From the NCBI GenBank assembly GCA_963666115.2, contig CAXXET010000004.1, positions 1 to 64,000 of the forward strand: DNA of 64,000 nt, read 5' to 3'. The stretch is from Dehalococcoidia bacterium. Its GTDB lineage: Bacteria; Chloroflexota; Dehalococcoidia; UBA6926. Below the pieces are notes generated by a model. It saw nothing but the letters and a program-made list of their open reading frames with translations. It ran no database searches and was not told the origin of the DNA. Of the stretch, positions 19,850 to 35,847 are shown piece after piece. The position numbers and the translations under genes are program-made. Each line of letters begins with the position of its first letter. Position 1 is the first letter of the stretch.

Positions 19850-20559
19850 GGCAGTCGTCCATGCGCCGCCCTCAACACGCCTCACCGCCCGGCTATTTTG
19901 GCCAGATACGGATACTGCTGGCCAAGGAAATCACCGTCGAGTTCCGGTCACGCGAGACCGCTATCCCCATGGCCGTCTTTGCCGCCGCCGCGCTCATCGC
20001 GTTCCAGTTCTCATTCGACCTGCGCGGCGGCACGCTCAACCTCGTTGCGCCCGGCGTCCTGTGGGTGGCAATCATCTTCGCCAGCCTGCTCGCGCTGGGC
20101 CGCTCCTTTGCGCGGGAGTCGGAGCGCGGCTCGCTGGACGGCCTGCTTGCGAGTCCTATCGATCCGGGAGCGCTCTACCTGGCCAAGGCGGCCGCCAACG
20201 TCATCCTGTTGGTGGCGCTGGAGGCCGTCATCATCCCGTTGGCCGCGATCCTCTTCAACCTGCAGTTATTCCAGCCGGCCCTGCTCCTGGCGCTGCTGCT
20301 GGGAAACATCGGAATCGCGAGCGTGGGGACGATACTGGCCGCGATCAGCGCGCGCGCCCGGGCCCGTGAGGCGCTGCTGCCCATCATGCTGCTGCCCCTG
20401 CTTGTGCCGGTGATCATCGGGGCCGTGCGCGCGACGGCGCTGGCCATCGACGGCGGGCCGTGGGACGACATCCAACCCTGGCTGGCCATCCTGGCGGCGT
20501 ACGACCTGGTCTTCCTGACCGTGTCCTCGCTCCTCTTCTATGTTACGGTTGAAAAATGA
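19846..20559 (+). CDS. ccmB: Heme exporter protein CcmB
   Basis: KE..VEFRSRE, APGVLWV, F.RE.E.GSLDGL and RE.LLP..LLPL..PV. Confidence 0.92.
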   Translation: MRQSSMRRPQHASPPGYFGQIRILLAKEITVEFRSRETAIPMAVFAAAALIAFQFSFDLRGGTLNLVAPGVLWVAIIFASLLALGRSFARESERGSLDGLLASPIDPGALYLAKAAANVILLVALEAVIIPLAAILFNLQLFQPALLLALLLGNIGIASVGTILAAISARARAREALLPIMLLPLLVPVIIGAVRATALAIDGGPWDDIQPWLAILAAYDLVFLTVSSLLFYVTVEK

Positions 20560-21257
20560 GCCTGACCGGTCGACGATTCACCGTTATGGACGCTGTTGGC
20601 ATAGCCGCTTTCGCCGCCATGCTCATTGCGCTGTACCTCGCCATCGTCGAGTCGCCGATCGAGCGCGTGCAGGGCATCCACCAGAAGATCTTCTACATCC
20701 ACGTGCCGACCGCGCTGGTGGGCTACATCGCCTTCGCCGTCGTCGCGTTCGCCAGCGTCATGTACGTCTGGAAGCGCGCGGAGCGGTGGGATCGGCTTGC
20801 CCTTGCGTCGGCGGAGCTGGGCGTCATCTTCACGACGCTCATGCTGGCGACGGGTTCGATCTGGGGGCGGCCCGTGTGGGGCGCGTGGTGGGACTGGTCG
20901 GACGCGCGGCTGGTCACGTCGCTGGTCATGTGGCTGGTCTACGTGGCCTACCTGATGTTCCGCTCGCTCGGCGAACGCGGCCCCGGCACATACCGCTCGG
21001 CGGCGGTCATTGGCATCCTGGGCTTCGTCAGCGTGCCCTTGTCATACTTCTCGATCTGGCTCTGGACCAACGTCCTCCATCCCGTCCCGACGCTGCAATC
21101 GTCGACGGACAGGCCGGAAGGCTCGATATTGATACCGTTCCTGTTCGGGATGCTGGCCTTTACCCTCCTCTACGCCTACCTGGTGTCATTCCGCATGAGG
21201 GTCGAGGAATCACAGCGCGAACTGGACGAACTACGCGCAGAGCGCGAAGCCGCATAG
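20556..21257 (+). CDS. ccmC: Heme exporter protein CcmC
   Basis: KIFYIHVP, TGSIWGRPVWGAWWDWSDARL (WWD domain) and LHP. Confidence 0.94.
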   Translation: MSLTGRRFTVMDAVGIAAFAAMLIALYLAIVESPIERVQGIHQKIFYIHVPTALVGYIAFAVVAFASVMYVWKRAERWDRLALASAELGVIFTTLMLATGSIWGRPVWGAWWDWSDARLVTSLVMWLVYVAYLMFRSLGERGPGTYRSAAVIGILGFVSVPLSYFSIWLWTNVLHPVPTLQSSTDRPEGSILIPFLFGMLAFTLLYAYLVSFRMRVEESQRELDELRAEREAA

Positions 21258-21273
21258 GGAGGTACTTGTAGAC

Positions 21274-21459
21274 GTGGAAAACGGTTTCGGCGATTTCAGC
21301 CCGATCTTTGTCTTTGTATCCTACGCCGCAGTGTGGGTAGTCTTCTTCGCCTACCTGTACTACGTGGCGCGCAGGCAGTCCGATATCCGCTCCCAGCTGG
21401 ACGCGCTGAAGGATTCGGAATCAAACACATCCGAACGCGGCGCAGAGGAAACGGAGTAG
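21274..21459 (+). CDS. ccmD: CcmD-like small membrane protein
   Basis: 61 aa with YAAVWVVFFAYL TM then a charged tail; GGAGG SD; follows ccmC. Confidence 0.8.
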   Translation: MENGFGDFSPIFVFVSYAAVWVVFFAYLYYVARRQSDIRSQLDALKDSESNTSERGAEETE

Positions 21460-21499
21460 CCTCGCGCAGGTGGGGGATACGCTGTCCACGTGAAACCCG

Positions 21500-21509
21500 T
21501 ACAATTGTA
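21500..21509 (+). promoter_or_regulatory. -10 box (TACAAT) embedded in the perfect palindrome TACAATTGTA; probable TA operator
   Basis: 10-bp palindrome just upstream of the antitoxin gene. Autorepression is inferred from general type II TA biology. Confidence 0.5.
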
Positions 21510-21523
21510 GTAAAGCACGCACG

Positions 21524-21766
21524 ATGGATGAGGGACGCACGATGGCTACGCGAGAAGAGTTGTCTTGCCAGGTTGAGCCGGAAGTGGCGGAGTCCGTCCG
21601 GCAGATCGCCCAATCGCAGGGGCGGCCGGTAAGCGACGTGGTGGAGGAGGCCGTCACCGCGTTTGTGGACGGTCGCCCGCGCCACGCGCCGGATGATGTG
21701 GTGATGGCGCACTACCGGGATAGCCTGAAAAAGAACCGTCGACTCGCGGAACTGCTGGCCGAATGA
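21524..21766 (+). CDS. Antitoxin (ribbon-helix-helix-like) partner of Doc
   Basis: 80 aa with V...VRQIAQSQGRPVSDVVEEAV and C-terminal L.ELLAE; ATGA overlap with the doc gene. Likely start 21542. Confidence 0.75.
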   Translation: MDEGRTMATREELSCQVEPEVAESVRQIAQSQGRPVSDVVEEAVTAFVDGRPRHAPDDVVMAHYRDSLKKNRRLAELLAE

Positions 21767-22149
21767 GTCGACTGTATTTGACGGTCGAGCAAGCGCTAGC
21801 CATTCACGACGATCAGATTGCCGAGATCGGCGGGGAATCCGGCCTGCTGAATCCCGACGCGCTGGAGTCGGCGCTCTACCGCCCTCAGATTGGGTACTAC
21901 GACGACCTGCTGGATGAGGCGGCGGCGCTCATGGAGAGCTTGGCGATGAACCATCCATTTGTGGACGGCAACAAGCGCGTCGCGTTCTTCGGCACTGATG
22001 CCTTTCTGCGTATGAACGGCAGCTTCATCGATGCCGACAACGAGGAGGCCCACGCCTTCTTTATGCACCTGTTTGAGACTGGCACGTTCCGCTTCCGAGA
22101 ACTCCGCGCCTGGTTGGGAGAGCACGCGGTTCCGATGCCTGAGGGGTGA
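21763..22149 (+). CDS. doc: Death-on-curing (Doc/Fic) toxin
   Basis: YLTVEQALAIH, LESALYRP and the catalytic motif HPFVDGNKR. Confidence 0.92.
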   Translation: MSRLYLTVEQALAIHDDQIAEIGGESGLLNPDALESALYRPQIGYYDDLLDEAAALMESLAMNHPFVDGNKRVAFFGTDAFLRMNGSFIDADNEEAHAFFMHLFETGTFRFRELRAWLGEHAVPMPEG

Positions 22150-22168
22150 GGGAGAACGGGGCGCGGCA

Positions 22169-22195
22169 GTCATTTCCGTGCACGCGGGAATCCAG
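22169..22195 (+). repeat. Palindromic repeat family A copy
   Basis: GTCATTTCCGTGCACGCGGGAATCCAG downstream of doc. Confidence 0.7.
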
Positions 22196-22223
22196 CGGGG
22201 AGGCGAACTAATCGCGTCTCTGT

Positions 22224-22253
22224 TTGACACTAATAGCACCTTAGAGGTATGTT
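22224..22253 (+). promoter_or_regulatory. Putative sigma70-type promoter
   Basis: TTGACA (22224-22229), 18-nt spacer, TATGTT (22248-22253). The predicted TSS (~22259) coincides with the 5' arm of the closing stem. Confidence 0.5.
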
Positions 22254-22258
22254 TCAAA

Positions 22259-22401
22259 AAAGCAGAGGCCTCCAAGCTTGCGCTTGGAGGCTTCCAGCAA
22301 GACGAACTGATCCAACGTCGATGCGGGTCAGTCTACTGAGCATGAGTAACTCCCGTCGAGGGGTGGCCTCGCTGGAAGTGCTTGGCGAGATTCTCTGCTT
22401 T
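22259..22401 (+). ncRNA. Candidate structured RNA of unknown family
   Basis: Nested pairings: 22259-67/22393-401 (9 bp), 22268-77/22282-91 (10 bp), 22291-98/22371-78 (8 bp), 22306-13/22325-32 (8 bp, 1 G-U), 22349-53/22360-64 (5 bp). Confidence 0.5.
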
Positions 22402-22426
22402 ACTCGCGGAGGAGGTGATGCCATTC

Positions 22427-22474
22427 ATGAAGCAAGAGCAAGACGCCGCTGCCGCTGAGCAACGTGAATTTTGA
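22427..22474 (+). CDS. Putative 15-aa peptide MKQEQDAAAAEQREF
   Basis: Preceded by the extended SD AGGAGGTGAT (22410-22419). An in-frame ATG is also present at 22418. Confidence 0.3.
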   Translation: MKQEQDAAAAEQREF

Positions 22475-22477
22475 CTA

Positions 22478-22525
22478 GGGGGCAGTCTCCTTTACCGGCC
22501 CCATGTGAGGTGCGAGACTGCCCCC
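22478..22525 (+). other. 12-bp perfect stem-loop between the two small ORFs
   Basis: GGGGGCAGTCTC (22478-89) pairs with GAGACTGCCCCC (22514-25); no U-tract follows. Confidence 0.65.
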
Positions 22526-22556
22526 ATGTCTTGTGGCGGACTGAAAGGAGAACAGC

Positions 22557-22685
22557 ATGGCTTTCCCAATCGACGCAAATCGGGAACAACTCGCAGAGCT
22601 TCAAGCAATCAGAGAAGAGCTTGAGAAGCTCGTGGAGTTGATGAAAAGAGCGGTGGAGACACTAGATGCAATTGCCGCCAACTGA
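22557..22685 (+). CDS. Putative 42-aa amphipathic helical protein
   Basis: GAAAGGAG SD, 6-nt spacer, ATG; MAFPIDANREQLAELQAIREELEKLVELMKRAVETLDAIAAN with heptad-like periodicity. Confidence 0.55.
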   Translation: MAFPIDANREQLAELQAIREELEKLVELMKRAVETLDAIAAN

Positions 22686-22879
22686 TTCACACGGACGCGG
22701 TAAACTAGTCTCTCTGTCGCATTCGCCATAAGCCCCAATTCTTTCGGGCCGTTGAAACGCTCGCCTTAATATGGCCATTTCGGACTTCACTAAACTGTCA
22801 ATGGCACCATATGGTCATCGGCTGTCATGGCTCAACTCCTTGTCGTACGTCCACCATAGCATGTTTGCAGGTACAGCCC

Positions 22880-24004
22880 CTACTCATCACACCAGAGCGG
22901 TTCACCATCGCTATCTTCGTTCCCCTCCGGAACTCTGATAGACCCACGTTCCTCCAGATGGCGGAGGCCGGCAGGAATACAGCCGGTCAGTTCATTCCCC
23001 CTCAGAGCTAAGGTGTAAAGGAACTCCAAATCGCCTAACTCTGCGGGGATGCCCCCGGTCAACTTGTTGTCGCTGAGACCCAAGTGTTCCAAGTGCATTA
23101 AGTTACCTAGCTCACGGGGTATCACGCCAGCAAGTCCATTCCCACCAAGATTTAGATCGTCCAGGTTTGCCATGTTGCCTAGCTCGGGTGGAATGTTGCC
23201 AGTTAGTCTGTTCCCGGGGAGGTTAAGCCTCTGGAGGTTAACCAGCTTGCCGAGACTGGATGGTATGCTCCCCGAAAGCTCATTGCCAGGCATATCCAAG
23301 GAGATAAGGTTCGTCAGATTGCCGAACGATTCCGGTATAGGGCCCGATATACGGTTGTCCCAGATCTCCAGAACTTCGAGCCTCGTAAGGTGCCCAAGCT
23401 CTTGAGGTAAGGAACCGCTCAAACGATTGTAAGCGAGATGCACGTAGTCCAGAAACTCCAGCATCCCCAATTCCGGTGGCAGCTCTCCAGTGAGTCTATT
23501 GCCTTGGAGTCGTATGCCTGTAACCCGCCCTCGGTCAGTCCTTACTCCGTACCATTCACGCAGCGGCTCATCGCTCAGCCAGTTTTCATTGTTCTTCCAG
23601 TTGTCGCCGTCTGTGGCGTTGTAGAGGGCGATGAGGGCCTGGCGATCATTCTCAGGGCCGGGGTCTGGAGTGGGCTCCGGTGTTGGCGGGGGAACGGGTG
23701 TCGGCTCTTCAGTGGGTGGTGGAGCAACCGTTGGCGCGGGTGTCGCTGTTGCGCGGGGCGCAGTGGAAGGCGTCGGGGCAGCACCCGCGAGTTGTTCTGC
23801 GACGATGGTGGCCGCCAGCGTCTCGGCGGTGGCGTGGATATCGGGGGCTGGGGTGGGGCTTATGGATGGGGTCGGGGTAGGGGCATCGATGGCGGAGGCG
23901 GGGCTATCGGAGGGCGGCTGGTCTTGTTGGGGTGATTCGACGGGGGTGCAGGCGACGAGGGCCAGGGCGGCGAGGGCGAGGATGGCGACATGGAGGCGAG
24001 TCAT
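22880..24004 (-). CDS. Leucine-rich repeat lipoprotein (plant-type 24-aa LRRs)
   Basis: LVAC lipobox, Pro/Thr linker, DRQALIALYNATDGDNW...WYGV cap, and about eight L.L.GN.LTG.IP.ELG repeats. Confidence 0.9.
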   Translation of the reverse strand: MTRLHVAILALAALALVACTPVESPQQDQPPSDSPASAIDAPTPTPSISPTPAPDIHATAETLAATIVAEQLAGAAPTPSTAPRATATPAPTVAPPPTEEPTPVPPPTPEPTPDPGPENDRQALIALYNATDGDNWKNNENWLSDEPLREWYGVRTDRGRVTGIRLQGNRLTGELPPELGMLEFLDYVHLAYNRLSGSLPQELGHLTRLEVLEIWDNRISGPIPESFGNLTNLISLDMPGNELSGSIPSSLGKLVNLQRLNLPGNRLTGNIPPELGNMANLDDLNLGGNGLAGVIPRELGNLMHLEHLGLSDNKLTGGIPAELGDLEFLYTLALRGNELTGCIPAGLRHLEERGSIRVPEGNEDSDGEPLWCDE

Positions 24005-24027
24005 GTTTCAAGGATAGCGGATTTTGC

Positions 24028-24062
24028 CCCTCACCCGAACCCTCTCCCAGAGGGAGAGGGGA
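24028..24062 (+). repeat. Palindromic repeat family B copy
   Basis: CCCTCACCCGAACCCTCTCCCAGAGGGAGAGGGGA, 34/35 identical to 13156-13190. Confidence 0.8.
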
Positions 24063-24087
24063 TTCTTGCGGCGGTTAGATGGTTTGG

Positions 24088-25965
24088 TCAAGCGTTGATG
24101 AACTGGTCTAGCATTATGGTTAGGAAAAGCAAGGCCAGGTAGAGGATGGAGTACTTGTAGAGGCGGAGGGCGGCGGCGCGGTCCTTTTCCCTCAGCAGGC
24201 GGTAGGCGTAGTAGGTGAACATTCCGCCCAGGGCGATTGCGCCCGCAAGGTAGACGGCGCTGAGGCTCATCGTCGAGATGTAGAGCAGCAGGGCGAGGAT
24301 ATTCACCAGGATGGTGTAGAGGAAGATGCTGATTCGCGTGCTCTCTTCGCCGAGGACGACCGGCATCATCGGCACGCTGGCCCGCTCATAGTCGTCCTTG
24401 ATCATCAGGGAAAGCGCCCAGAAGTGCGGCGGCGTCCAGAAGAAGATGATCAGGAACAGGTACACGGCGGGCAGGCCCAACTCGCCCGTCACGGCGGCCC
24501 ACCCCACCATCGGCGGCACCGCGCCCGCCGCGCCGCCGATGACGATGTTCTGCACCGTGGTCTGCTTGAGCCACAGCGTGTAGACGAAGACGTAGAAGAG
24601 GGCGCCGCACAGGGTGATGGACGCGGCGAGCACGTTCGCGCCGCCCGCCAGCACGGCAAAGGCCAGCGCGTTGAGAGCGATGCCGTAGCCAATCGCCATG
24701 CGGGGGGTGACGCGGCCGCTCGCGACCGGACGGTGGCGCGTTCGCATCATTGCGGAGTCGATGTTGCCCTCGAGGCCGTGGTTGATGGCCCCCGCGCCGC
24801 CGGATGCCAACGCGCCGCCGAGCAGGACCGCCGCGGCGACGGTCAGCGGCGGCAGTCCCTGTGCCGCCAGCACCATGCCGCCGAACGCGGTCAGCAGGAG
24901 CAGCACCATGACGCGTGGCTTGGTGAGCCAGAAGTAGTCGGATGCGGTGGCCCATAACGTCGTGCGGTGCATGGTGTCGGAGGCGCCGGCGGGGGTGGGG
25001 AGAGAGGGGTTTGCACGTGCGCGGGCGGCCAGGATGACTAGGAGGACAGCGGCGGCCCAGGTTAGGGAGGCGAGGGTGATGTGGGCGACGCGGGCGGCGT
25101 GGTGGAACTCCGTCCACGGCACGAGCGCGCCGACGATGATCTGGACGATGAGGAGGTGGAAGGTCGCCTGCCCCACCCGGCTGACCATGCGGTCGTTCGC
25201 TTTCTGCCGCCACGCGAGATACGCAACGAAGCCCGTCACGAGCGTTCCAATAACGACCATCCAGCGATGCCCCATGTGGATATTCGGGTCGAATCCGCTC
25301 GGCATGATCGCGCCATCGCACAGCGGCCACGCGGAGAACCCGCTGCCGCACGCAAGCGTCGCCTCCTCGGCAACGACGTATGAGCCGGAGAGGATCATCA
25401 CCAGCGTCAGCACGGCGGCGGCGACAGCCCAGATGTAGAGTTTGCGGGCATCCGGGTAGGGTATGCCCTGCCCCTCTGCCGGAGGCGATTCGCGCGGCGC
25501 GGCGGCCATCATCGTCACAATGAGCAGCGCGAGAATGGCCTCGGCAAGGAAGAGGTGGAGCGTGACGATTGGCGGGGGCAGCTCCGTTATGACGGCCACG
25601 CCGCCCAGCCCCGCCTGCGTCAGCATGACGATGAGCGTGATCGCGGCGGGAACGAGCGCGCGGCGTGTCGGTTCCTCTCCGGCGCGTGACGCGAGAAAGG
25701 CGACGACGAACATCGCGGCCACCAGCAGCCCGACGATGGCGGCGGTCAGCCGGTGGGAGTACTCGATGAGGACGTGGTATTCGAACGGGGGGATGATGCT
25801 GCCGTGGCAGAGCGGCCAGTCCGGGCAGGCCAGGCCGGAGCCGGTGACGCGCACGAAGCTGCCAAGGCTGATTAAAAAGACGGTCACTATCGCCGCCGCA
25901 AGCGCAAGCCCCAACAAGGCCTTGCGGTAACGCAGGTCGGCAGCGGCAGGCGTGTTGGACATCAC
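24088..25965 (-). CDS. Fused heme A synthase (CtaA/COX15) and heme O synthase (CtaB/CyoE)
   Basis: N-terminal half: GSGLACPDWPLCHG, EYSHR, H.GHR. C-terminal half: LTKPRV, D..M.RT..RP, QNIVIGGAAGA.PP, WTPPHFWAL, DDY. Confidence 0.92.
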   Translation of the reverse strand: MMSNTPAAADLRYRKALLGLALAAAIVTVFLISLGSFVRVTGSGLACPDWPLCHGSIIPPFEYHVLIEYSHRLTAAIVGLLVAAMFVVAFLASRAGEEPTRRALVPAAITLIVMLTQAGLGGVAVITELPPPIVTLHLFLAEAILALLIVTMMAAAPRESPPAEGQGIPYPDARKLYIWAVAAAVLTLVMILSGSYVVAEEATLACGSGFSAWPLCDGAIMPSGFDPNIHMGHRWMVVIGTLVTGFVAYLAWRQKANDRMVSRVGQATFHLLIVQIIVGALVPWTEFHHAARVAHITLASLTWAAAVLLVILAARARANPSLPTPAGASDTMHRTTLWATASDYFWLTKPRVMVLLLLTAFGGMVLAAQGLPPLTVAAAVLLGGALASGGAGAINHGLEGNIDSAMMRTRHRPVASGRVTPRMAIGYGIALNALAFAVLAGGANVLAASITLCGALFYVFVYTLWLKQTTVQNIVIGGAAGAVPPMVGWAAVTGELGLPAVYLFLIIFFWTPPHFWALSLMIKDDYERASVPMMPVVLGEESTRISIFLYTILVNILALLLYISTMSLSAVYLAGAIALGGMFTYYAYRLLREKDRAAALRLYKYSILYLALLFLTIMLDQFINA

Positions 25966-26852
25966 GTTGTCGCCGACCTCTGCGGGGCGTGATTGGGCGG
26001 GTTGTTGTAGAGCGCGGCGCGCGAACGGCGCGTGTCCTCCTCATCACGGCGCACCGCGACAATGAACAGGCCGGCAATCGCCAGGAAATACGGCGCGATG
26101 CCGCCAACCCACATGATGAGCCCGCCGATCTGCTGGTCGGTCATCGCGTCGATGCCCCACAGCGGTTCCTGCCCGATGTACGGCGCATACCAGGGAGTCG
26201 CGGCGAATGTGAGCATGGCGGCCAACGGGAACGTCAGCGACAGCGCCATGACCACGATGACGAGCCTGCCCAGGTACGGCACCTTGCCCTGGATGGGCGT
26301 CGGATCGATGATTGCCCACCAGAAGAGCGTGGCGGCGGTGATGAAGCTGGCGTGTTGCGCGATGTGGACGAAATCGTTGGTGACGGCGGCGGCGTAGGCC
26401 CCCGGAACATGCCACGCCCAGATGGTTGCCACGAAGGCGGCCAGGCAGACGAGCGGGTGGATGAGAATGTGAAAGAGGTAGCGAACCTGGGGCGCGCGGG
26501 CCAGTTTGATGACGGTCAGCCGGCGGATGCCGTAGCCCATGCCGCGCGCAACGGGGAGGACGGGCGCGCCAAGCAGAATCAGCGGCACGGCGACGTGCGT
26601 CAGGAGCATGTGCTGGGCCATGTGAAAGGCGAAGAGGCGCCCGCCGAGCGTGTCAATCGGCGAGATAAGCGCAAGGAGCAGCAGCAGCAGTCCGGCGGCA
26701 AACGAGGCGGCGCGCCAGTTGGTGACCACGCGAACCTTGAGCGGATTCAGCCCGCGCAACCCCCTCGCGTAGGCGAGACCGAGCAGGCCGACGAAGAAGA
26801 GCGTCAGCGGCTCCCACGACCACGCAAGCAGGATGTTGTCAGCGTCGTTCAT
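25962..26852 (-). CDS. ctaG: caa3-type oxidase assembly factor CtaG
   Basis: SPID, HMAQHMLL..VA.PL, WHVP and DQQIGGLIMWV. Confidence 0.9.
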   Translation of the reverse strand: MNDADNILLAWSWEPLTLFFVGLLGLAYARGLRGLNPLKVRVVTNWRAASFAAGLLLLLLALISPIDTLGGRLFAFHMAQHMLLTHVAVPLILLGAPVLPVARGMGYGIRRLTVIKLARAPQVRYLFHILIHPLVCLAAFVATIWAWHVPGAYAAAVTNDFVHIAQHASFITAATLFWWAIIDPTPIQGKVPYLGRLVIVVMALSLTFPLAAMLTFAATPWYAPYIGQEPLWGIDAMTDQQIGGLIMWVGGIAPYFLAIAGLFIVAVRRDEEDTRRSRAALYNNPPNHAPQRSATT

Positions 26853-26881
26853 GCCGCAATCCGCGCCGGGGCGGCATCGGG

Positions 26882-27178
26882 CTAATGAGAGTCGCGGCTC
26901 TCGTTGCTATCGTCGTCCGGCGCAAGCCACGCAGCGGCAACGGCGAAGCCAATGAGGAAGATGAGGGACAGCCCCAGCGCCACAAGCACCTGTGGATAGA
27001 CGTGCTCGCCGCCAACGTTGAAGTACTCGTGGCCGAACAGCAGGAGGAACTCGCCGATGCCGACGATGAGCGCGACGGTGATGACCAGGCAGATGACCGG
27101 CAACAGGATGGGGATCACCAGCCTGTCCTTGACGTTGCCGGTTGCGCCGCGGTCGTTATGCTCGTCGTGATGCGCCAT
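26882..27178 (-). CDS. Small 2-TM protein in the cta operon
   Basis: 98 aa with two hydrophobic segments and a GGAG SD; between subunit IV and ctaG. Confidence 0.65.
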   Translation of the reverse strand: MAHHDEHNDRGATGNVKDRLVIPILLPVICLVITVALIVGIGEFLLLFGHEYFNVGGEHVYPQVLVALGLSLIFLIGFAVAAAWLAPDDDSNESRDSH

Positions 27179-27207
27179 TATCGCTCCGCTATTCGTTCGT
27201 TTATCGC

Positions 27208-27540
27208 CTAGTGCCCGACCGTTCCGCCCGGCAGTGTGAAGTTCTCAAAGAGCGCCACCAGCGCCAACAGGACGGCAATGGCGAGGAAGAGTCCGCCCAG
27301 GAAGAGCGCCTGGTAGAGGCGGTCGTCGAACTTGAGGTGCATGAACCAGCCGACGACGTAGGCGAACTTGACGGCGGAGAGGACCAGGAGCGAGGGGATG
27401 AGGATGAGATTGCCGACGTCAACGATGACAATGGCCACCTCGATGATCGTGATGACGCAGAGGATGATCGCGACTTTGACGTAGGTTCGGGGAGTGGGAT
27501 GCTCCTCTCCCGCGTGCGTCTGTTCCTCTATGCTCGCCAT
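27208..27540 (-). CDS. ctaF: Cytochrome c oxidase subunit IV
   Basis: Y.KVAIIL..IT..EV and KF..VVGWFMHLKFD. Confidence 0.88.
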   Translation of the reverse strand: MASIEEQTHAGEEHPTPRTYVKVAIILCVITIIEVAIVIVDVGNLILIPSLLVLSAVKFAYVVGWFMHLKFDDRLYQALFLGGLFLAIAVLLALVALFENFTLPGGTVGH

Positions 27541-27568
27541 TGCGCCTTCCTCGCTTCTCTGCCTTTGC

Positions 27569-28183
27569 CTATACCGACGGTCCGGACGGGATGAGATACA
27601 CCACCGTAAAGATCACAATCCAGACAATATCGACGAAGTGCCAGTAGAGTCCCACGAGTTCCACGGTGAGATGGTGCTGCGGTTGGAGCCGCCCCATCAT
27701 GGACGCGCCCACGAGGGTTAGCAACATGAACACGCCGATGGCGACGTGCGTTCCGTGGAATCCCGTCAAGACGAAGAAGCTGGTGCCAAAGACGCTCGTG
27801 GTAAGCGTCAGGCCGTGTACTTCAACGAACGTCGTGAACTCGTAGTACTGGCCGCCAAGGAACACCGCGCCGAGCAGCGCCGTGGCCAGCAGCCAGATGC
27901 GCGCCTGCCGCGAGTTGCCACGCTGGAGTGCGGCGAGCGCCAACACCATTGTCAGGGAGCTCATCAGCAAGACGAACGCGCTGACGGACGTGTACGGGAT
28001 GTCAAATATCTCCGGCCCGGGGCCGGTCGGCACGTTGCTCCGGTACACCATGTAGGTGGAGATCAGCGCGCCGAAGAAGAGACAGTCGGACGCCAGGAAG
28101 ACCCACATGAGGATCTTCCGGTGGTCGAGGCCCGTCGTCGTGTAGTGGGCCTCAGACTGTCCCATTGCCGCGTCGTGTGCCAC
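27569..28183 (-). CDS. ctaE: Cytochrome c oxidase subunit III
   Basis: MWVFLASD, LTGFHGTHV and GLYWHFVD.VW. Confidence 0.94.
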   Translation of the reverse strand: MAHDAAMGQSEAHYTTTGLDHRKILMWVFLASDCLFFGALISTYMVYRSNVPTGPGPEIFDIPYTSVSAFVLLMSSLTMVLALAALQRGNSRQARIWLLATALLGAVFLGGQYYEFTTFVEVHGLTLTTSVFGTSFFVLTGFHGTHVAIGVFMLLTLVGASMMGRLQPQHHLTVELVGLYWHFVDIVWIVIFTVVYLIPSGPSV

Positions 28184-28221
28184 GTGCGATGTCCTTTAGC
28201 GTCTCTCGTTCAGTCTCGTTG

Positions 28222-30087
28222 TTAGTCCGGCGGCTCGAATATCCAGCCGTACGAGCCCCAGAGCAGGAGTATCAGGCCGATTGCGCCTGCGGCGATGCCG
28301 AGCGGCTCAGAGGTCCTGTAGAGCAGAAGTGTGATGCCCAGGGCGAAGATGCCAAGCGCGACAATCAGGGGGAAGTAGGACGGGCTCGGCATGTGGATGT
28401 CATGGCGCTCGTCGTCCTCGTGATCGGCGGCGCCGGCGGGAACAGGGCGCGGCGTTTCGTGGCCCTCTTCGGGGTACTTCTGCTCCCAGAGGGCGTCACG
28501 GCCATGGACAACGGGAATCTCGGCGAAGTTGTAATGCGGGGGCGGGGACGACATCGCCCATTCGAGCGTGCGGGCATCCCACGGGTCATCGCCGGCAACC
28601 TCGCCGCTGCGGGCGCTGCGGAGCGCGTTGACCACGAACAGCCCGATGCCAAAGATCATGAACAGGACGCTCAGCGAGGCGACGAGGTTCCAGACATCCC
28701 ATCCCATACCCTCGGGGAACGTGAAGTTCCGCCGCGGCATTCCGACGAGGCCCAGGTAGTGCATGGGGCCAAACGTCATATTCATGCCGATGAAGACTAG
28801 CCAGAAGCTCCACTTGCCCTGGTATTCGTTCATCATGCGCCCGGTCATCTTGGGGAACCAGTAGAAGATGCCGCCCAGGATAGCCATGATCGAGCCGCCG
28901 AAGAGCACATAGTGGATGTGGGCGACGATGTAGTACGTGTCCGTCTGCTGGAGATCGGACGGGGCCGCCGCGTGTGTCATGCCGCTCAGCCCGCCGATGG
29001 TGAACAGGGCGATGAATCCGATCGCAAAGTACATCGGCGTCTTGAGTTGTATGTTGCCTCCCCATAACGTCGCCAGCCAGTTGAACACCTTGACGCCGGT
29101 GGGAATGGCGATGGCCATCGTCGTCGTGGCAAAGACGGCGTCCGGCACGGGGCCGAGGCCGGCGGCGAACATGTGGTGCGCCCACACGGACCAGCCGAGG
29201 AAGGCGATGGTCAGGCCGGAGAACACGACCACCGGGAAACCGAAGAGGGGCTTGCGGGAGAACGTGGGCAGGATCTCCGAGATGATGCCCATTGCCGGCA
29301 GGATCAGGATGTACACCTCGGGATGGCCGAACACCCAGAACAGGTGCTGCCAGAGGAGCACGTCGCCGCCGAGCTCGAAGACGAAGAAGTTGGTGCCGAA
29401 GAAGCGGTCAAAGCCCAGTTCGATCAGCCCGATGGTGATGACCGGCATCGCCAGCGCCAGCAGGAAGGACGTGATGAACGCCATCCACGTAAAGATGGGC
29501 ATTCGCATGAGGCTCATGCCCGGGGCGCGCAGGTTGATGATGGTGACGACGAAGTTGAACGCGCCGAGCAGCGACGACGTTCCCAGCACAAGCAGGCCGA
29601 GTACGTAGAAGTCCATGCCCGCAGAGGGGGAGAACGTGTTGTTCGTCAGGTTGGCATAGGCAAACCAGCCGGCGGCCGGGGCGGTCATGGTGAACCACCC
29701 AAGGTTCAGGATGATCGCGCCGAAGAGGAAGACCCAGTAGCTGAGGGCGTTCAGGCGGGGGAATGCGACGTCCCGCGCGCCGATCTGGAGCGGGACAATC
29801 CAGTTAAAGAACGCGACGCTGAGCGGCATGATGGCCAGGAAGATCATGGTCAGCGCGTGCATCGTGAAGAGCTGGCTGAACACGTTGGCGCTGATGAGGG
29901 TTGAATCCGGCACCGCCAACTGGAGCCGCATCAGGATCGCCTCGATGCCGGCGACAATGAAGAAGAAGAACGCCGTGACAAGGTAGAGCGTGCCGATCCT
30001 CTTGTGATCGATCGTCGTGAGCCAACTCCAGATACCGGTGGTTCCGGTTGGTCTCGCCAGGACGCCCATCAGCATTGCCATCGTCAC
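28222..30087 (-). CDS. ctaD: Cytochrome c oxidase subunit I, type A1
   Basis: DHKRIG, D.AFPRLN, WVFGHPEVY, WAHHMF, PTGVK and VAHIHYV. Confidence 0.97.
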   Translation of the reverse strand: MTMAMLMGVLARPTGTTGIWSWLTTIDHKRIGTLYLVTAFFFFIVAGIEAILMRLQLAVPDSTLISANVFSQLFTMHALTMIFLAIMPLSVAFFNWIVPLQIGARDVAFPRLNALSYWVFLFGAIILNLGWFTMTAPAAGWFAYANLTNNTFSPSAGMDFYVLGLLVLGTSSLLGAFNFVVTIINLRAPGMSLMRMPIFTWMAFITSFLLALAMPVITIGLIELGFDRFFGTNFFVFELGGDVLLWQHLFWVFGHPEVYILILPAMGIISEILPTFSRKPLFGFPVVVFSGLTIAFLGWSVWAHHMFAAGLGPVPDAVFATTTMAIAIPTGVKVFNWLATLWGGNIQLKTPMYFAIGFIALFTIGGLSGMTHAAAPSDLQQTDTYYIVAHIHYVLFGGSIMAILGGIFYWFPKMTGRMMNEYQGKWSFWLVFIGMNMTFGPMHYLGLVGMPRRNFTFPEGMGWDVWNLVASLSVLFMIFGIGLFVVNALRSARSGEVAGDDPWDARTLEWAMSSPPPHYNFAEIPVVHGRDALWEQKYPEEGHETPRPVPAGAADHEDDERHDIHMPSPSYFPLIVALGIFALGITLLLYRTSEPLGIAAGAIGLILLLWGSYGWIFEPPD

Positions 30088-30110
30088 TTACTCCTTCGGC
30101 CTGCCGCCCG

Positions 30111-31238
30111 CTACTTCAGGCTCTCCAGGAAGAATACGAGATCATCAAGCTCCTGGGCTGTGACTTCAATGTTCGGCATCTCCGTGCCGGGCTTGACCTC
30201 CGGCGCATTGTCGAGCCACCGCTTGAGATTCACAGCCTCCGGGTCGCGCTGCATGAAGTCAGGATCGGTCGGCACGTCCTCAAAGAACGCGCCCATGTTC
30301 ATGTCCGCCGGGCCCTTGTGGAGGGTGTTGGCCGCGATGGTGACGCGGGAGCCGAAGTGGGAGAGATTGGGGCCGGTCACGCCAATGGCCAACTCATACT
30401 CATCCTCGGTCGCGCCCTGGATGGTGTGGCAACCGCGGCAGGCGTTCTCCTGGAAGACGACCCAGCCCGGTTCCATTGCCGGCGTCATGGCCACCGCAGG
30501 CTGGCGCTCATTCTCAGCCCACGCCTCGTAGTCGTCAGCCGTGCGCGCAAAGGCCACAGTCCGCATCAGGGCGTGGGAATCCCCGCAGAACTCCTTGCAC
30601 TGCCCTGCGTAAACGCCGGTTTCCGTCGCGTTCAGCCACATGCGGTTCTCGCGGCCTGGCACAACGTCACGGCTGCCGGCGAGGCGCGGAACGGAGAAGC
30701 TGTGAATAACGTCGTTTGAGGACAACTTGAGATTGATGACTGTATCGACGGGGATGTGCAGTTCGTTGGCGGTGATGAAATCAAGGTCGCCGTTCTCATC
30801 AAGGTAGCGGTACTCCCACCACCACTGGTGGCCGATGACTTCGATGGTGAGGGACGGGTCATCGGCGTATTGGGACGGGGCGTCATACGTGGCGCCAATG
30901 CCCGCGACCGTCGGAATGGTGATTGCGATAATGATCAGGGACGGCGCGATGGTCCATCCGATCTCAAGCGGAGTATTGCCGTGAGTCTGTGGAGGGATGT
31001 CATTCTCGTGGCCGCGCCTCGCACGGTACTTGAGCACGGCAATGATCAGGAAGCCCTGGACGCCGATGAAGATGACGACGGCGATCCAGAAGATGAAGAC
31101 GAAGAGGTTCTGTTGGTTCTGGGCTACGTCACCAGCCGGGTGGAGCGTGCTCTGCGGCAGCGCCAACTGGCAGCCAGACAGGAGAACGACGGCCATGAAA
31201 ACCGTCAGCGCCCCGATTAGCTGGGTTCCTTTCCCCAT
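30111..31238 (-). CDS. ctaC: Cytochrome c oxidase subunit II with C-terminal cytochrome c domain (caa3)
   Basis: LSGC lipobox, LEIGWT, GHQWWW, DVIHSF, CuA motif CKEFCGDSHALM and heme-c motif CRGCH...MP. Confidence 0.95.
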   Translation of the reverse strand: MGKGTQLIGALTVFMAVVLLSGCQLALPQSTLHPAGDVAQNQQNLFVFIFWIAVVIFIGVQGFLIIAVLKYRARRGHENDIPPQTHGNTPLEIGWTIAPSLIIIAITIPTVAGIGATYDAPSQYADDPSLTIEVIGHQWWWEYRYLDENGDLDFITANELHIPVDTVINLKLSSNDVIHSFSVPRLAGSRDVVPGRENRMWLNATETGVYAGQCKEFCGDSHALMRTVAFARTADDYEAWAENERQPAVAMTPAMEPGWVVFQENACRGCHTIQGATEDEYELAIGVTGPNLSHFGSRVTIAANTLHKGPADMNMGAFFEDVPTDPDFMQRDPEAVNLKRWLDNAPEVKPGTEMPNIEVTAQELDDLVFFLESLK

Positions 31239-31359
31239 GCGGTTGAGCCTGTTCAGAACAATACCTCAGCAGTTAGCGTTTGGGTCGCAGCCGCGACATT
31301 GCGAGTCTATCTGTCTGCCCGAATTTGTGTCAAGCGTCACAAGCGGCGGACGGCGCGCC

Positions 31360-31365
31360 TATAAT
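31360..31365 (+). promoter_or_regulatory. -10 box of a probable leaderless moaD-moaE transcript
   Basis: TATAAT, 6 nt, then ATG 31372; no SD. Confidence 0.55.
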
Positions 31366-31371
31366 GGCGGC

Positions 31372-32049
31372 ATGGACGTTCGTGTACGGCTGTTTGCGGC
31401 GCTGCGAGAGGCAGCGGGCGCTTCGGAAATCAGCGTTGAAATCCCGGAGGGGGAGCCGGTCTCGCGCCTGCTGGGCGAGGCACAGCGGCAGCATCCGGCG
31501 CTGGCGAATCGCTGCCAGGGCGTTGTCGTCGCCGTCAACCAGGAGTATGTCGATCAGTCAACCGTGATCTCTGCCGGGGACGAAGTCGCGTTGATTCCGC
31601 CCGTGAGCGGAGGGGCCGTCTCGGAGGCGGAGGCCGTGCAGGTTGGCGTGACGCCCGACCCGCTGGACGCCTTGAGAATCGCCGAATCGCTCAAGGAATC
31701 GGCTGACGGGGCGGTTCTCACGTTTGAGGGCATCGTGCGCGACAACAACCTGGGGCGGCGCGTGCTTTTCCTCGAATACGAGGCATACCCCGAAATGGCT
31801 GAGAGCGTGCTGCGGAAGATTGGGGGCGAGACGCTCGAAGACTTCGATATCGGCAGCATCGCATTGTGGCACCGGACGGGACGGCTTGAGATTGGCGAAA
31901 CGTCACTGGTGGTGGCGGTGGCGTCGCCGCACCGGCGCGCGGCCTTCGACGCGTGCCGGGAGGCCGTGGAAAAGGTGAAGGCGCTGGCTCCGGTCTGGAA
32001 ACGCGAGGTCTGGGACGGCGGCTCAGAGTGGCTACGGGGCGCCGGATAG
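31372..32049 (+). CDS. Molybdopterin synthase MoaD-MoaE fusion
   Basis: MDVRVRLFAALREAAG...GDEVALIPPVSGG (MoaD) continues in frame into GA..TFEGIVR, LEYEAY, HR.G.L..GE, SPHR and P.WKRE (MoaE). Confidence 0.92.
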   Translation: MDVRVRLFAALREAAGASEISVEIPEGEPVSRLLGEAQRQHPALANRCQGVVVAVNQEYVDQSTVISAGDEVALIPPVSGGAVSEAEAVQVGVTPDPLDALRIAESLKESADGAVLTFEGIVRDNNLGRRVLFLEYEAYPEMAESVLRKIGGETLEDFDIGSIALWHRTGRLEIGETSLVVAVASPHRRAAFDACREAVEKVKALAPVWKREVWDGGSEWLRGAG

Positions 32050-33810
32050 TCTCTTCGTCATGGCCACGTGCTCAATGTCGGCTTCCATAAACATTTCGCC
32101 CTGTTCCGTATAGCCTGCCTGCGCGTAGAAATCCTTGACGTAGGTCTGAGCATGGAGGAGCGCGTTCTGGAATCCGCGCTCGCGGGCTGCCTCTTCAAGC
32201 AGAGCAAGAATCTTATCGCCAATCCTGTGCCGCCTGAGGTCCTGTCGTACTGCCATGCGGCCGATGCGGCACGTTTCCTCGTCCTGATCCGTTAGCAGGC
32301 GCCCCGTGCCGACAACCTCACCGCCTATGAGTGCCACGGCATGGACGGCGTCCTCATCACGTCCGTCCCACTCTTCATAAGGGTCCACGTTCTGTTCATC
32401 AATAAAGACGACGCGGCGGAGGGCAAAAATCGCCTCCAGGTCATCTGCTCCGGCGATCCGAACCACCACGTCCACCTCATCATCCACAGCAACTCTATGC
32501 CCCATCCCACCCGTGTTGATAATCTCGCGCGCCGCCTGTAGGAGCACGGCGCGCCGCCCAGTGGCAACCGATGACTTCTCCATATAGAGGTTGAGTGCTT
32601 GTTCAGGCTCAAGCGACTCAATTGCCATGCTGCGGTCGAGGCGGGTTCGGGACCTGTCAGGCGCGTCCGCCTGCACCGTGACGCCGGAGACGACGTGCGC
32701 TCCGGCCTGCCTCAACATGTTCCGAATACGAATACGGTCTATGTCGCCTGCAAGTTCGGCGGGAGCCTGGATTTCCACGCGGGTTACCGCATCATTCACG
32801 TCCGCGCCGGCAAGCCTCTTTTCGATTTCTCCCATCACGTCCTGCTCTGTCGAACGCAGCTTTACCTGTATTGTCGTGAACCGGCGACTCCACACAGGTT
32901 GAAACGACCACGAAGCGGCGCGCCGCCCGGGCGGAAGGGCAGGATTGATGTCCACGACACAGAAGCCCTTGTCGTCACTTTCCTCGGAAAAGTCGACACG
33001 GTGGAGGCTGCCGGAGTAGACGACAGGCGGAGCGTCCGCAATGAGCTGGCGGCGGTGGATGTGGCCAAGCGCGGCGTAGTCGACGGGATGGGCCTGGAAT
33101 GCGCTGGGCAGCAGCAGGTAGTCGTTGCCCATCATCATGGTGCGTTCATGGCCGACGGTGGCGGTGGTGGCAGTGGCATGGGCTGATAGGATGGACGGCA
33201 CAGCCGGATCAAGCTCTCCCGCCATGCGATTGATCTCATTGGTGAGGTATTCCTGCATCCACTCATTCACCTCCGTAGCGCTCTTGCCGTGCAGCTCGCC
33301 AAGCGCGGCGGCGGAACTACGGCGGAACCACGGCACGGCCACAATCTGGACCGGGCCGGCCGGGGTCTCAATGCGGTGAACGGCCGGGCGCGATGCGACA
33401 GTAACGTTGTCAACGGCGAGCGCGTCAAAGATGTCCAGCGCGGTTGCCCTGCCCTCCGTGTTGGGCACGTCATGATTGCCGGTGAGGAGAAAGACCGGGA
33501 TGCCCGCAAGCGCCAGGCGGCTGATGCGGCGGGCGAATTCCCGCTGGTGGGTCTGTGAGGGGTCCCGCGAGCGATAGGCGTCGCCGGAAAAGACGACAAG
33601 ATCGACGCGGGGTTCGGTCAGGGCAAAATCGACGAGATCATCGAGAGAGCGGAGGGAATCGATGAGGCGGGACGGCATCCCGGTGTAGGTGGCGGCGCGG
33701 TTGACACCAGGCGCGAACGTTTCCGGCAGCGCGTTGAGTTCGTCCGATGTAACGGGTCGGCTGTGAGTTTCAACGCCGATATGCGAGTCGGCAAAGTGGA
33801 TAATTCGCAT
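32032..33810 (-). CDS. sbcD: SbcD/Mre11-family nuclease fused to a C-terminal GNAT acetyltransferase
   Basis: HFADSH, SGD, GNHD, ALGHIH and YSGS..R.DFSE; then LRR.VF.DEQ.V...E.D..D, IGRMAV, HAQ...FY..GY and F.EA.IEH..M (ElaA/YjcF-like). Confidence 0.88.
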   Translation of the reverse strand: MRIIHFADSHIGVETHSRPVTSDELNALPETFAPGVNRAATYTGMPSRLIDSLRSLDDLVDFALTEPRVDLVVFSGDAYRSRDPSQTHQREFARRISRLALAGIPVFLLTGNHDVPNTEGRATALDIFDALAVDNVTVASRPAVHRIETPAGPVQIVAVPWFRRSSAAALGELHGKSATEVNEWMQEYLTNEINRMAGELDPAVPSILSAHATATTATVGHERTMMMGNDYLLLPSAFQAHPVDYAALGHIHRRQLIADAPPVVYSGSLHRVDFSEESDDKGFCVVDINPALPPGRRAASWSFQPVWSRRFTTIQVKLRSTEQDVMGEIEKRLAGADVNDAVTRVEIQAPAELAGDIDRIRIRNMLRQAGAHVVSGVTVQADAPDRSRTRLDRSMAIESLEPEQALNLYMEKSSVATGRRAVLLQAAREIINTGGMGHRVAVDDEVDVVVRIAGADDLEAIFALRRVVFIDEQNVDPYEEWDGRDEDAVHAVALIGGEVVGTGRLLTDQDEETCRIGRMAVRQDLRRHRIGDKILALLEEAARERGFQNALLHAQTYVKDFYAQAGYTEQGEMFMEADIEHVAMTKRLSGAP

Positions 33811-33815
33811 GGGCG

Positions 33816-35138
33816 CTAGCCCGTTAGGCGGTCTTCAAGCAGCGCGCCAAGCTCAGCTATCGGCACGCGCACTTGCTCCATCGTGTCGCGGTCGCGGACG
33901 GTGACGGCGTTGTCTTCCTCAACGGTCTGGAAGTCGATGGTGACGCAGTACGGCGTGCCGATTTCGTCCTGGCGGCGGTAGCGGCGGCCGATGGACTGGG
34001 AATCGTCATAGTCGGTCATCCACCGCTTGCGGACGATGTCATAGACTTCCCGCGACTTTGGCAAGAGTTTCTCATTGCGAGAGAGGGGGAGGACAGCGAT
34101 CTTATAAGGTGCGAGGTCGTGGTGCAGCTTGAGCACGGTGCGGCTCTCCCCGTTCACCTCCTCCTCTGTATAGCCGTCAACCAGAAAAGCGAGGAGGCAG
34201 CGGTCGACGCCGCTGGCAGGCTCCACAACGTGGGGGATGAACCGCTCTTGCCGTTCATCGTCGAAATACTCCAGCTTGTGGCCGGAACTGTCCTGGTGCT
34301 GGCGAAGATCAAAGTCTCCGCGGTAGGCAATGCCCTCCAGCTCCGACCAGCCAATCGGGAACAGGTACTCAATGTCATAGACGGCGGCGGCGTAGTGGGC
34401 GAGCTCATCCTGCTCATGCTGCCGGAAGCGCAGCCGCTCCGGGTTGATGCCGAGGTCTGTATACCAGCGCATCCGCTCGTTTCGCCAGTAGTCCAGGGAC
34501 GCAAAGCCGTCCTCCGGGCGGACGAAGTACTCCATCTCCATCTGCTCGAACTCGCGGGTACGGAAGATGAAGTTTCCCGTCGTGATCTCGTTGCGGAATG
34601 ACTTTCCGGTCTGCGCGATGCCGAACGGGATCTTCTTCCGCGTGGCCGTCCGCACGTTGTCGAAATTCGTGAAGATGCCCTGCGCGGTCTCAGGCCGCAG
34701 GAACGCCACTGCCGCGTCCTCCTCCACCGGCCCGAGGAACGTCTTGAACATCAGGTTGAACTGCCGTGGCTCCGTGAATTCGTCCACGGCGTCGCAGTCC
34801 GGGCATGCGCCATTCTCGATGTGGTCGGCACGGTGACGGCGATGGCATCTGCGGCACTCAACGAGGGGGTCAGTAAACCCCGCCACGTGGCCGCTGGCCT
34901 CCCAGACTAAGGGGCTTTGGATGATGGCGCTGTCAAGGCCGACGACGTCATCCCGCTCCTGCACCATCGCGCGCCACCATGCGTCGCGCACGTTCCGCTT
35001 GAGTTCCACGCCGAGGGGGCCGTAGTCCCACGACGAGCCGATGCCGCCGTAGATCTCGCTGGCCGGAAACACGAACCCGCGCCGCTTGGCCAGCGACACG
35101 ATGGTGTTCATGTCGGTCAGGGTCGGCTCAATCGTCAC
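33816..35138 (-). CDS. glyQS: Glycine--tRNA ligase (alpha2 type)
   Basis: KRRGFVFP.SEIYGG, FNLMF.T, LRPETAQGIF, FRNEIT.GNFIFRTREFEQME and SIGRRYRRQDEIGTP. Confidence 0.97.
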   Translation of the reverse strand: MTIEPTLTDMNTIVSLAKRRGFVFPASEIYGGIGSSWDYGPLGVELKRNVRDAWWRAMVQERDDVVGLDSAIIQSPLVWEASGHVAGFTDPLVECRRCHRRHRADHIENGACPDCDAVDEFTEPRQFNLMFKTFLGPVEEDAAVAFLRPETAQGIFTNFDNVRTATRKKIPFGIAQTGKSFRNEITTGNFIFRTREFEQMEMEYFVRPEDGFASLDYWRNERMRWYTDLGINPERLRFRQHEQDELAHYAAAVYDIEYLFPIGWSELEGIAYRGDFDLRQHQDSSGHKLEYFDDERQERFIPHVVEPASGVDRCLLAFLVDGYTEEEVNGESRTVLKLHHDLAPYKIAVLPLSRNEKLLPKSREVYDIVRKRWMTDYDDSQSIGRRYRRQDEIGTPYCVTIDFQTVEEDNAVTVRDRDTMEQVRVPIAELGALLEDRLTG

Positions 35139-35165
35139 GAGACGCGCCCTCCGGAGGATTGCGGC

Positions 35166-35522
35166 TTAATCAAGGCCGCGCTTGTCCAGGATTTTGTCGA
35201 CCTCGCCCTCGCGGGCCTGGCCGATCATCTCCTTGACGCGGTCCGGCATCTCGATGCCTGCCTCGTCCATGCGCTTCTCCGCCCACCGGCCGATATTCGA
35301 CGGGTCACGCCAGTAGTCGTAGCCGGGGGCGTCAGGGTCGCCGGATGCCTCGTGGCGGGAGGCGGTGGAGCGGACGTATGCCGCGCGGGACATGACTTTC
35401 TCGGTCTCCGTGGAGCCGCAGTGGGCGCATTCCTGGTTCGTCGGCAACTCCTCCGGCATGACCTTGTAAAAGGCGCTGGAGCGTTTGCCGCACTCGTTGC
35501 AGGTGTACTCGTAAATGGGCAT
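35166..35522 (-). CDS. FmdB-family zinc-ribbon protein
   Basis: MPIYEYTCNECG...CAHCGS. Confidence 0.85.
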   Translation of the reverse strand: MPIYEYTCNECGKRSSAFYKVMPEELPTNQECAHCGSTETEKVMSRAAYVRSTASRHEASGDPDAPGYDYWRDPSNIGRWAEKRMDEAGIEMPDRVKEMIGQAREGEVDKILDKRGLD

Positions 35523-35824: not shown

Positions 35825-35847
35825 GATGCGTTTGAGTTTAGCAGAGG

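Follow-up and report, generated by a model that had tools for sequence, protein, structure and literature searches.

The question raised by this locus is what occupies a gap of 730 bp (22150-22879) that separates, without any long open reading frame (ORF), the stop codons of a Fic/Doc gene and of a convergent LRR gene in a contig of a Dehalococcoidia bacterium (CAXXET010000004.1; the window analysed here is its whole stretch from position 1 to 64,000, and coordinates refer to it unless another locus is named). The longest ORFs within the gap have 69 amino acids on the plus strand and 56 on the minus strand. An earlier note on this DNA had proposed that the gap holds an undescribed non-coding RNA or regulatory leader, and the landmarks that it named are all present: the gap itself, the promoter-like sequence pointing to about 22259, a 9-bp closing stem, a 10-bp tetraloop hairpin, an 8-bp inner stem enclosing further hairpins, two loops carrying CGTCGA, and a strong Shine-Dalgarno sequence (GGAGGAGG), which starts 7 nt after the closing stem. 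The element is non-coding, measures about 145 bases, contains several stems, and with its ribosome-binding site spans about 22256-22415 (Table 1). Its helices exist, two of them (P3 and P7) are mutually exclusive, both of these are kept in a second species, and both copies of the element lie in accessory regions. We therefore describe it as a conserved non-coding structured RNA module in the accessory or mobile DNA of one genus, and ask below how such a module might work.

A covariance model for which only the window sequence was used (R1) brought up the second copy as its one full-length match, in G007, a genome of the same genus (40.6 bits, E 1.2e-7). A homologue is thus present in one of the 21 other species of the genus. 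By blastn the homology extends over 22257-22400 and positions 1503-1648 of the G007 locus L089, with 70.7% identity over 150 nt; it ends at the ends of P1, and the flanks of the two copies are unrelated. Weak R1 matches in four further genomes (G004, G015, G016, and G052) look like noise when aligned. A coding explanation of the conservation was rejected, as no reading frame is kept between the copies: the alignment contains single-base gaps, and the ORFs differ.

The three helices named in the earlier note (P1, P2, and P3, with 26 pairs in all) had been predicted from the window alone, and the G007 copy therefore provides a fair test of them. On the plus strand it keeps 22 of the 26 pairs. 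In two pairs both partners have been replaced, giving A-U for G-C in P1 and C-G for U-A in P2, which is the kind of compensatory change that the earlier note had suggested looking for among homologues, here seen between two sequences only. Two other pairs have become G-U, one of them in P1. Divergence is 0.21 in helix columns and 0.39 (0.389) in the other columns, and change simulated at the rate of the non-helix columns leaves at least 22 pairs intact with a frequency of 0.009, the mean being 15.9. When consensus helices are considered instead (P1, P2, P3, P5, and P6), 60 of 60 cells pair on the plus strand, with two both-sided changes, and sliding the partners by 1-3 columns reduces pairing to 37-61%. 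P5 contributes four pairs, none of which varies. P7 has 16 of 16 cells paired, with one both-sided and three one-sided changes, and it could form on the plus strand only, because five of its cells are G-U. The G007 counterpart of P7 has 12 pairs with a T-rich tail behind them, and our scan classed it as terminator-like; the equivalent of P4 in G007 has 5 bp.

The loops have fared differently from the helices. The junction loops are poorly conserved, and the two copies of CGTCGA (22316-22321 and 22354-22359) are not kept, the aligned letters in G007 being AAGTCT and TGTCAA. The suggestion in the earlier note that these loops might kiss, or serve as repeated protein-binding sites, is unsupported, because the self-complementary UCGA core is lost in the G007 loops. 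The motif is in any case common in the window (99 matches on both strands vs 84 expected), and two copies within 143 nt on one strand are mildly unusual, at an estimated frequency of about 0.6%.

Folding calculations agree that the stretch is structured. The plus strand of a 151-nt stretch folds at -63.3 kcal/mol, and none of 200 shuffled sequences folds as well; folding is better than that of shuffles on both strands, with z-scores, a check proposed in the earlier note, of -3.41 on plus and -5.97 on minus. A GC-corrected scan of native sequence, comprising about 3,200 window-strand pairs from the 64-kb window, places the stretch within the lowest 0.3% (plus) and 0.2% (minus). A fold constrained to the P3-P6 layout has -61.1 kcal/mol, which is 1.5 kcal/mol above the minimum free energy (-62.6).

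Searches for known families and for further homologues were mostly negative. At gathering scores, Rfam 15 matches the window only once, in a tRNA at 37722, which supports the view of the earlier note that the element is undescribed. The best weak match, with E up to 10 allowed, is to BjrC68 (RF02353) on the minus strand at 22258-22326, with 20.5 bits vs a gathering score of 39 (E 0.0094). It covers essentially the terminator-like hairpin and is absent when the G007 copy is searched; being below threshold and not recurring in the homologue, it is read as chance. A blastn search of 22200-22560 in 61 genomes matched the RNA part only in its own genome, the match in G002 being confined to the start of a 42-codon ORF and that in G043 being a chance match of 27 nt. 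No homologue was found by blastn in plasmids and phages, in the flanks of 80 loci that encode Doc relatives (query 22150-22560), in metagenome contigs scanned with an exact 21-mer and a conserved-block pattern, or in two scans of viral contigs. A model built from both copies (R2) finds the element in 2 of 30 genomes of the order, and in a 151-genome sample of the phylum it gave four weak matches (E 0.04-0.49), none credible; the one in G180, on inspection, has no convincing likeness. In 401 genomes of the class, the conserved-block pattern occurs exactly only in the two known copies. Nine matches have three mismatches, the best R2 match in those loci has an E of 0.033, and a reversed control pattern matched 18 genomes (counted by hand). 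Each carrier genome has a single copy. A literature search turned up nothing bearing on the element. The element is a new family of two members that belongs with the structured leaders or small RNAs already familiar from bacteria, and it is confined to the accessory DNA of one genus.

Table 1. Coordinates of the element, its parts, and its immediate surroundings
Feature	Position	Strand	Remarks
Fic/Doc gene	21763-22149		Pfam Fic, E 5e-15
Sigma-70-like promoter candidate	22224-22253	+	TTGACA-N18-TATGTT; 10/12 matches
Run of six A (U run on -)	22256-22261		Marks the left limit of homology with G007
P1, closing stem	22259-22267 with 22393-22401	+	9 bp
P2, perfect hairpin with tetraloop	22268-22291		10 bp; 7 G-C pairs
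P3, inner stem	22291-22298 with 22371-22378	+	Encloses hairpins P4-P6; 5' arm would be the "preemptor" of an attenuator
P4, hairpin	22306-22332	+	8 bp; 11-nt loop holds the first CGTCGA
P5, hairpin	22334-22348	+	Inside the best-conserved block (22325-22348)
Internal promoter-like site	22330-22359	-	TCGACG-N18-TAGACT; 8/12 matches
P6, hairpin	22351-22363	+	Loop holds the second CGTCGA
P7, hairpin	22368-22375 with 22382-22389	+ only	8 bp; 3 G-U
U-rich tract	22390-22401	+	After P7; includes the 3' arm of P1; right limit of homology
Ribosome-binding site	22408-22415	+	GGAGGAGG; starts 7 nt after P1; ATG at 22418
18-codon hydrophilic ORF	22418-22474	+	Directly 3' of the ribosome-binding site; not conserved
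G+C-rich stem	22478-22526		12 bp, 24-nt loop; follows the 18-codon ORF and precedes the ribosome-binding site of the 42-codon ORF
LRR gene	22880-24004	-	Opposite strand, convergent

The reading of the element that we tentatively favour, as possible rather than probable, is that of a plus-strand leader in which the mutually exclusive helices P3 and P7 act together as an attenuator of transcription, which a short antisense RNA might drive. Transcription would start from the promoter-like site at the left edge of the element. P3, which closes the junction of P4-P6, would act as the antiterminator, and P7 with the U-rich tract behind it as the terminator. As long as P3 holds, the polymerase would read on to the ribosome-binding site and the small ORF or ORFs beyond it; if P7 forms, transcription would stop at about 22390-22401, leaving an RNA of about 140 nt with its ends paired as P1. 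An antisense RNA of about 66 nt, made from the internal site on the minus strand (from about 22323 to 22256), could occupy the 5' arm of P3 and so favour P7. Transcription itself, its strand, termination at P7, any antisense RNA, and the biological target are inferred. The full version, in which sense leader and countertranscript of about 66 nt form one cassette, is rather unlikely as a whole.

What recommends an attenuator is the arrangement of P3 and P7. They exclude each other because both use 22371-22375, and the folds containing one or the other lie within 3.6 kcal/mol in both species: -61.1 (P3) vs -57.5 (P7) kcal/mol in the window, and -63.4 vs -66.8 in G007. The U-rich tract behind P7 doubles as the 3' arm of P1. 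An attenuator with a countertranscript would also give a role to nearly every conserved piece of the element.

The signals of the two strands conflict. In favour of the plus strand is the promoter-like site at the 5' edge, the sole such site in 21500-23200 (shuffled sequence gives 0.7), which predicts a start at about 22259-22261, the first base of P1; sites scoring 10/12 number five in 60 kb, both strands included. At the same distance in G007 there is a -10-like hexamer, TATCAT, ending 8 nt before the closing stem (by eye). Directly after the element in both copies there is a ribosome-binding site with a start codon, AGGAG being aligned at this position in G007 and an ATG following in each. 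Four one-sided changes in the consensus helices give G-U on the plus strand and A-C on the minus strand, so that 60 of 60 cells pair on plus and 56 of 60 on minus. The earlier proposal of a non-coding RNA or regulatory leader is thus borne out in part: the absence of an Rfam family, the homologue with compensatory changes, and the aligned -10-like hexamer and ribosome-binding site speak for it, but its strand signals conflict.

Several observations weigh against the plus-strand attenuator. The comparison of 60 with 56 cells is biased, the consensus helices having been picked on the plus-strand alignment, and the helices of the earlier note, which were not so picked, do slightly better on the minus strand (23 of 26 pairs vs 22 of 26), the terminal pairs that fail on plus being G-U on minus. 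The minus strand of the 151-nt stretch folds better against shuffles, at -64.6 kcal/mol with a z-score of -5.97 (vs -3.41 on plus), and again none of 200 shuffles is as good. P2 with its U run is terminator-like on the minus strand in both species. If the simulation takes the 11 changed helix columns as given, at least 22 pairs stay intact with a frequency of 0.125, and shuffles reached the observed covariation values in 62-130 of 500 trials; the covariation has no statistical weight because only two sequences are available. Further "compensatory" helices are easily found at about 70% identity in G+C-rich sequence, such as 22385-22389 with 22403-22407, and individual helices may therefore be spurious. 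The would-be terminator P7 is weak in the window, with its three G-U pairs, and was not listed as a terminator there by the scan. The internal minus-strand promoter scores only 8/12 in the window, and the plus-strand promoter has no good -35 in G007 (by eye). Terminator-like sites are not enriched in the genome (31 found vs about 37 expected in 60 kb), and the presence of a gene for Rho in the genome is likewise counted against the attenuator. The ORFs that follow the element are unrelated tiny orphans with no evident function to be regulated.

If the minus strand is taken as the transcribed one, the element would be a small RNA, either of about 66 nt from the internal site or longer, ending at P2 and the U run (22291-22256) and acting in trans or in cis on the plus transcript. 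We consider this improbable. P2, read on the minus strand, is followed by CTCTGC and six T. Among the terminator-like sites of 20001-40000 it ranks first, and nowhere in the 60 kb scanned is its number of pairs or of G-C pairs exceeded. All ten of its pairs hold on the minus strand in G007, two as G-U, and T-rich sequence follows the stem directly there; in the window, by contrast, 6 nt separate the 10-bp stem with its seven G-C pairs from the run of six U, which is a point against it. The internal promoter-like site lies at the same position in both copies, with 8/12 matches in the window and 10/12 in G007 (TTGACA-N18-TAGATT); the pattern TYGACR-N18-TAGAYT occurs in no other locus examined, and the best-conserved block covers the -10 of this site. 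The fold z-score of -5.97 also fits a minus-strand RNA. An RNA of 66 nt, however, leaves 22363-22401 unexplained, a region containing P7 and the 3' arm of P1 that is conserved with its pairing kept and would lie upstream of the promoter on the minus strand, and for a full-length minus-strand RNA no promoter-like site was found to the right of the element in the scan of 21500-23200. The closing stem and P3 of G007 each carry an A-C mismatch on the minus strand, no Hfq gene was detected in the genome, and the lack of enrichment of terminator-like sites tells against this small RNA as well. Rather more doubtful is a free-standing plus-strand RNA of about 140 nt, running from about 22260 to a point after P7, with its ends paired as P1 and independent of any ORF. 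It would account for the confinement of homology from one arm of P1 to the other amid unrelated flanks and downstream ORFs, for the maintenance of P1 with one both-sided change, for the promoter-like site at the 5' edge, and for P7 with a T-rich tail at the 3' edge. It does not account for the ribosome-binding site and start codon that follow at once in both copies, the alignment reaching into AGGAG; P7 is a weak terminator in the window, and such an RNA would be one without known partner or target.

The remaining explanations place the element in a wider unit or deny it a role as RNA. In a locus of the type I toxin-antitoxin kind, it would be the leader of an mRNA for a small membrane toxin, controlled by a cis antisense RNA, and loss of the toxin ORF would have to be assumed for the window copy. 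The G007 element is indeed followed by an ORF of 56 residues with two hydrophobic segments (by eye), both copies share their accessory regions with other toxin-antitoxin pairs (RHH/Doc in the window, PIN/RHH in G007), and signals for sense and antisense transcripts are both present. Yet the window has no hydrophobic ORF in any downstream frame, while its RNA structure is intact, and the G007 peptide has no relatives, its Pfam matches lying far below the cut-offs (E 0.2 or worse); this explanation is very unlikely. A feature acting at the DNA level, or by chance, is somewhat less so, but still doubtful: a non-autonomous mobile element with terminal inverted repeats, a site of recombination or single-strand replication, or simply decaying sequence. 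The ends are inverted repeats (the arms of P1, with some further similarity by eye), the occurrence is sporadic (2 of 30 genomes of the order), the two copies are in different genomic contexts, that of G007 among recombinases, an IS1595 transposase, and a Replic_Relax protein, and the stems hold equally well on both strands. There is, however, a single copy per genome, no target-site duplication is visible (by eye), and the inverted repeats of IS1595 are unrelated to the ends of the element. Moreover, the internal helices are kept by changes that preserve pairing, G-U included, which protein-binding palindromes do not need, and stem columns have diverged less than others (0.21 vs 0.39).

The attenuator that we favour has to be placed in the setting of its two copies, both of which are in accessory regions, one beside a toxin-antitoxin pair in the window and the other in a defence and recombinase island of G007. 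The island (L111, 3055-17000) encodes a Pycsar-like cyclase, a cyclic-nucleotide-monophosphate (cNMP)-binding TIR effector, two large serine recombinases, an IS1595 transposase, a PIN/RHH pair, and a Replic_Relax/HTH protein. The orphan ORF downstream of the G007 element is unrelated to the 18-codon ORF of the window. Near the G007 copy, L089 holds at 1281-1400 a different stretch, non-coding and about 110 nt long, that lies ahead of a gene for a small membrane protein on the minus strand; it includes the ribosome-binding site and start codon of that gene and a hairpin, is conserved in G002, G008, and G018 (L114, L115, and L116), and matched no Rfam family at gathering scores in L089, L114, or L116. 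This stretch may be another leader motif of the genus.

In the window, the element is part of a stretch of 52-58% G+C (about 21000-23600) within a genome region of 65-70% G+C, flanked by genes for cytochrome c maturation and by a CtaA/CtaB fusion gene. The order along the stretch is RHH antitoxin, Doc toxin, palindromic repeat, element, 18-codon ORF, 12-bp hairpin, 42-codon ORF, and LRR gene. No remnant of a tRNA or tmRNA was found, and no convincing repeats mark the boundaries of an island. In one sister species, G002, only 22517-22898 and part of the LRR gene have a counterpart, which is found in another genomic context, and of the 12-bp stem only the final few bases fall inside this homology. 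As G002 has the region of the 42-codon ORF without the element, the two are not tied to each other. Runs labelled as sponge metagenome carry near-identical pieces of the region, among them a 212-nt contig of run X2 that covers 22307-22515 with three differences, and the host genus is probably a sponge-associated, Dehalococcoidia-like lineage.

Several neighbours deserve description in their own right. The RHH antitoxin and Fic/Doc toxin form a pair at 21524-22149 with overlapping stop and start codons, and the closest relatives of Doc, 60-67% identical, are found in Dehalococcoidia and SAR202 assemblies. Directly 3' of the Doc stop codon lies an imperfect palindromic repeat of 24 nt (22169-22192), of which the genome has at least 17 stringent copies (at least 20 nt, at least 85%) on five contigs, and relaxing the threshold brings in many others. 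In the runs labelled sponge metagenome, the depth of contigs is greatest over 22109-22195. The sequence resembles an intergenic repeat of the repetitive extragenic palindromic (REP) type. The block formed by 22517-22898 and 23544-23878, which runs from the helical ORF of 42 codons through the non-coding DNA behind it to the LRR gene, is shared at 79-88% identity with one sister species (L084 7653-8036), where its genomic place is different. The protein of the 42-codon ORF is an orphan: among 5.8 billion proteins there is a single near-identical entry. Beyond the LRR gene, 24088-25965 is a single ORF of 625 codons in which COX15/CtaA is fused to UbiA/CtaB domains, adjoining a gene for a caa3-type CtaG. 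A second family of repeats, of about 27 nt, is found at 62524-62745, with three direct copies and an inverted partial copy. These repeats sit near the start of an ORF of 2817 codons, whose 5' end overlaps the first copy, and extend to the end of the next gene. No other stretch of the window is as strong an outlier in fold energy, and the best Rfam match to this one has an E of 0.14 in a search allowing E up to 1.

At present the element is a two-member orphan motif, a good candidate and not yet a discovery. Dehalococcoidia-like symbionts have hardly been explored for structured regulatory RNAs, and we found no papers naming both "type I toxin-antitoxin" and Chloroflexi. If the element is indeed a self-contained attenuator or antisense cassette travelling from island to island, it would reveal how reduced symbiont genomes that lack Hfq control their accessory genes. 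It might then be a portable "attenuator module" gating whichever small gene lies behind it, or else the RNA partner in a novel family of type I toxin-antitoxin loci, and in either case a new RNA family for the catalogues.

Comparison with known systems helps to place the element. Cis-regulatory leaders are recognized by a downstream gene of the same class; here an 18-codon hydrophilic ORF and an unrelated ORF of 56 residues are found. No reverse transcriptase, the mark of a retron non-coding RNA, is present among the neighbours scanned in the window or in G007. Of the marks of miniature inverted-repeat elements, terminal repeats are present, and multiple copies and a target duplication are not seen. 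The hok/sok system is a type I toxin-antitoxin locus, and the element is like such loci in its structured leader, its sense and antisense signals, the small hydrophobic ORF of G007, and its sporadic presence in accessory DNA, but it lacks a toxin-like ORF in the window and has no sequence relation to a known family. The pbuE adenine riboswitch is a transcriptional "ON" riboswitch. As in riboswitches of this type, the 3' strand of the junction-closing helix is also the 5' arm of a terminator-like hairpin, directly upstream of a ribosome-binding site; unlike them, the element has no Rfam match, two members only, poorly conserved junction loops, no metabolic or transport gene downstream, and nothing that suggests a ligand.

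A close parallel is with plasmid replication. In the replication leaders of plasmids of the pT181, pIP501, and pAMbeta1 type, attenuation is driven by a countertranscript: the leader can form either a preemptor or a terminator helix, and the antisense gene lies within the leader. Unlike those of pT181 and pIP501, the element precedes no replication gene, being followed by ORFs of 18 and 42 codons in the window and of 56 residues in G007, and it is found in chromosomal or island DNA of a Dehalococcoidia-like lineage. Its antisense promoter is weak in the window (8/12), it has an additional closing stem, P1, that pairs its ends, and it is known from predicted signals. The likeness is in the plan. 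As in the plasmids, a promoter would lead into mutually exclusive helices, P3 as preemptor and P7 as terminator, placed upstream of a ribosome-binding site, and a candidate antisense gene lies inside the leader, with its predicted terminator adjoining the candidate leader promoter.

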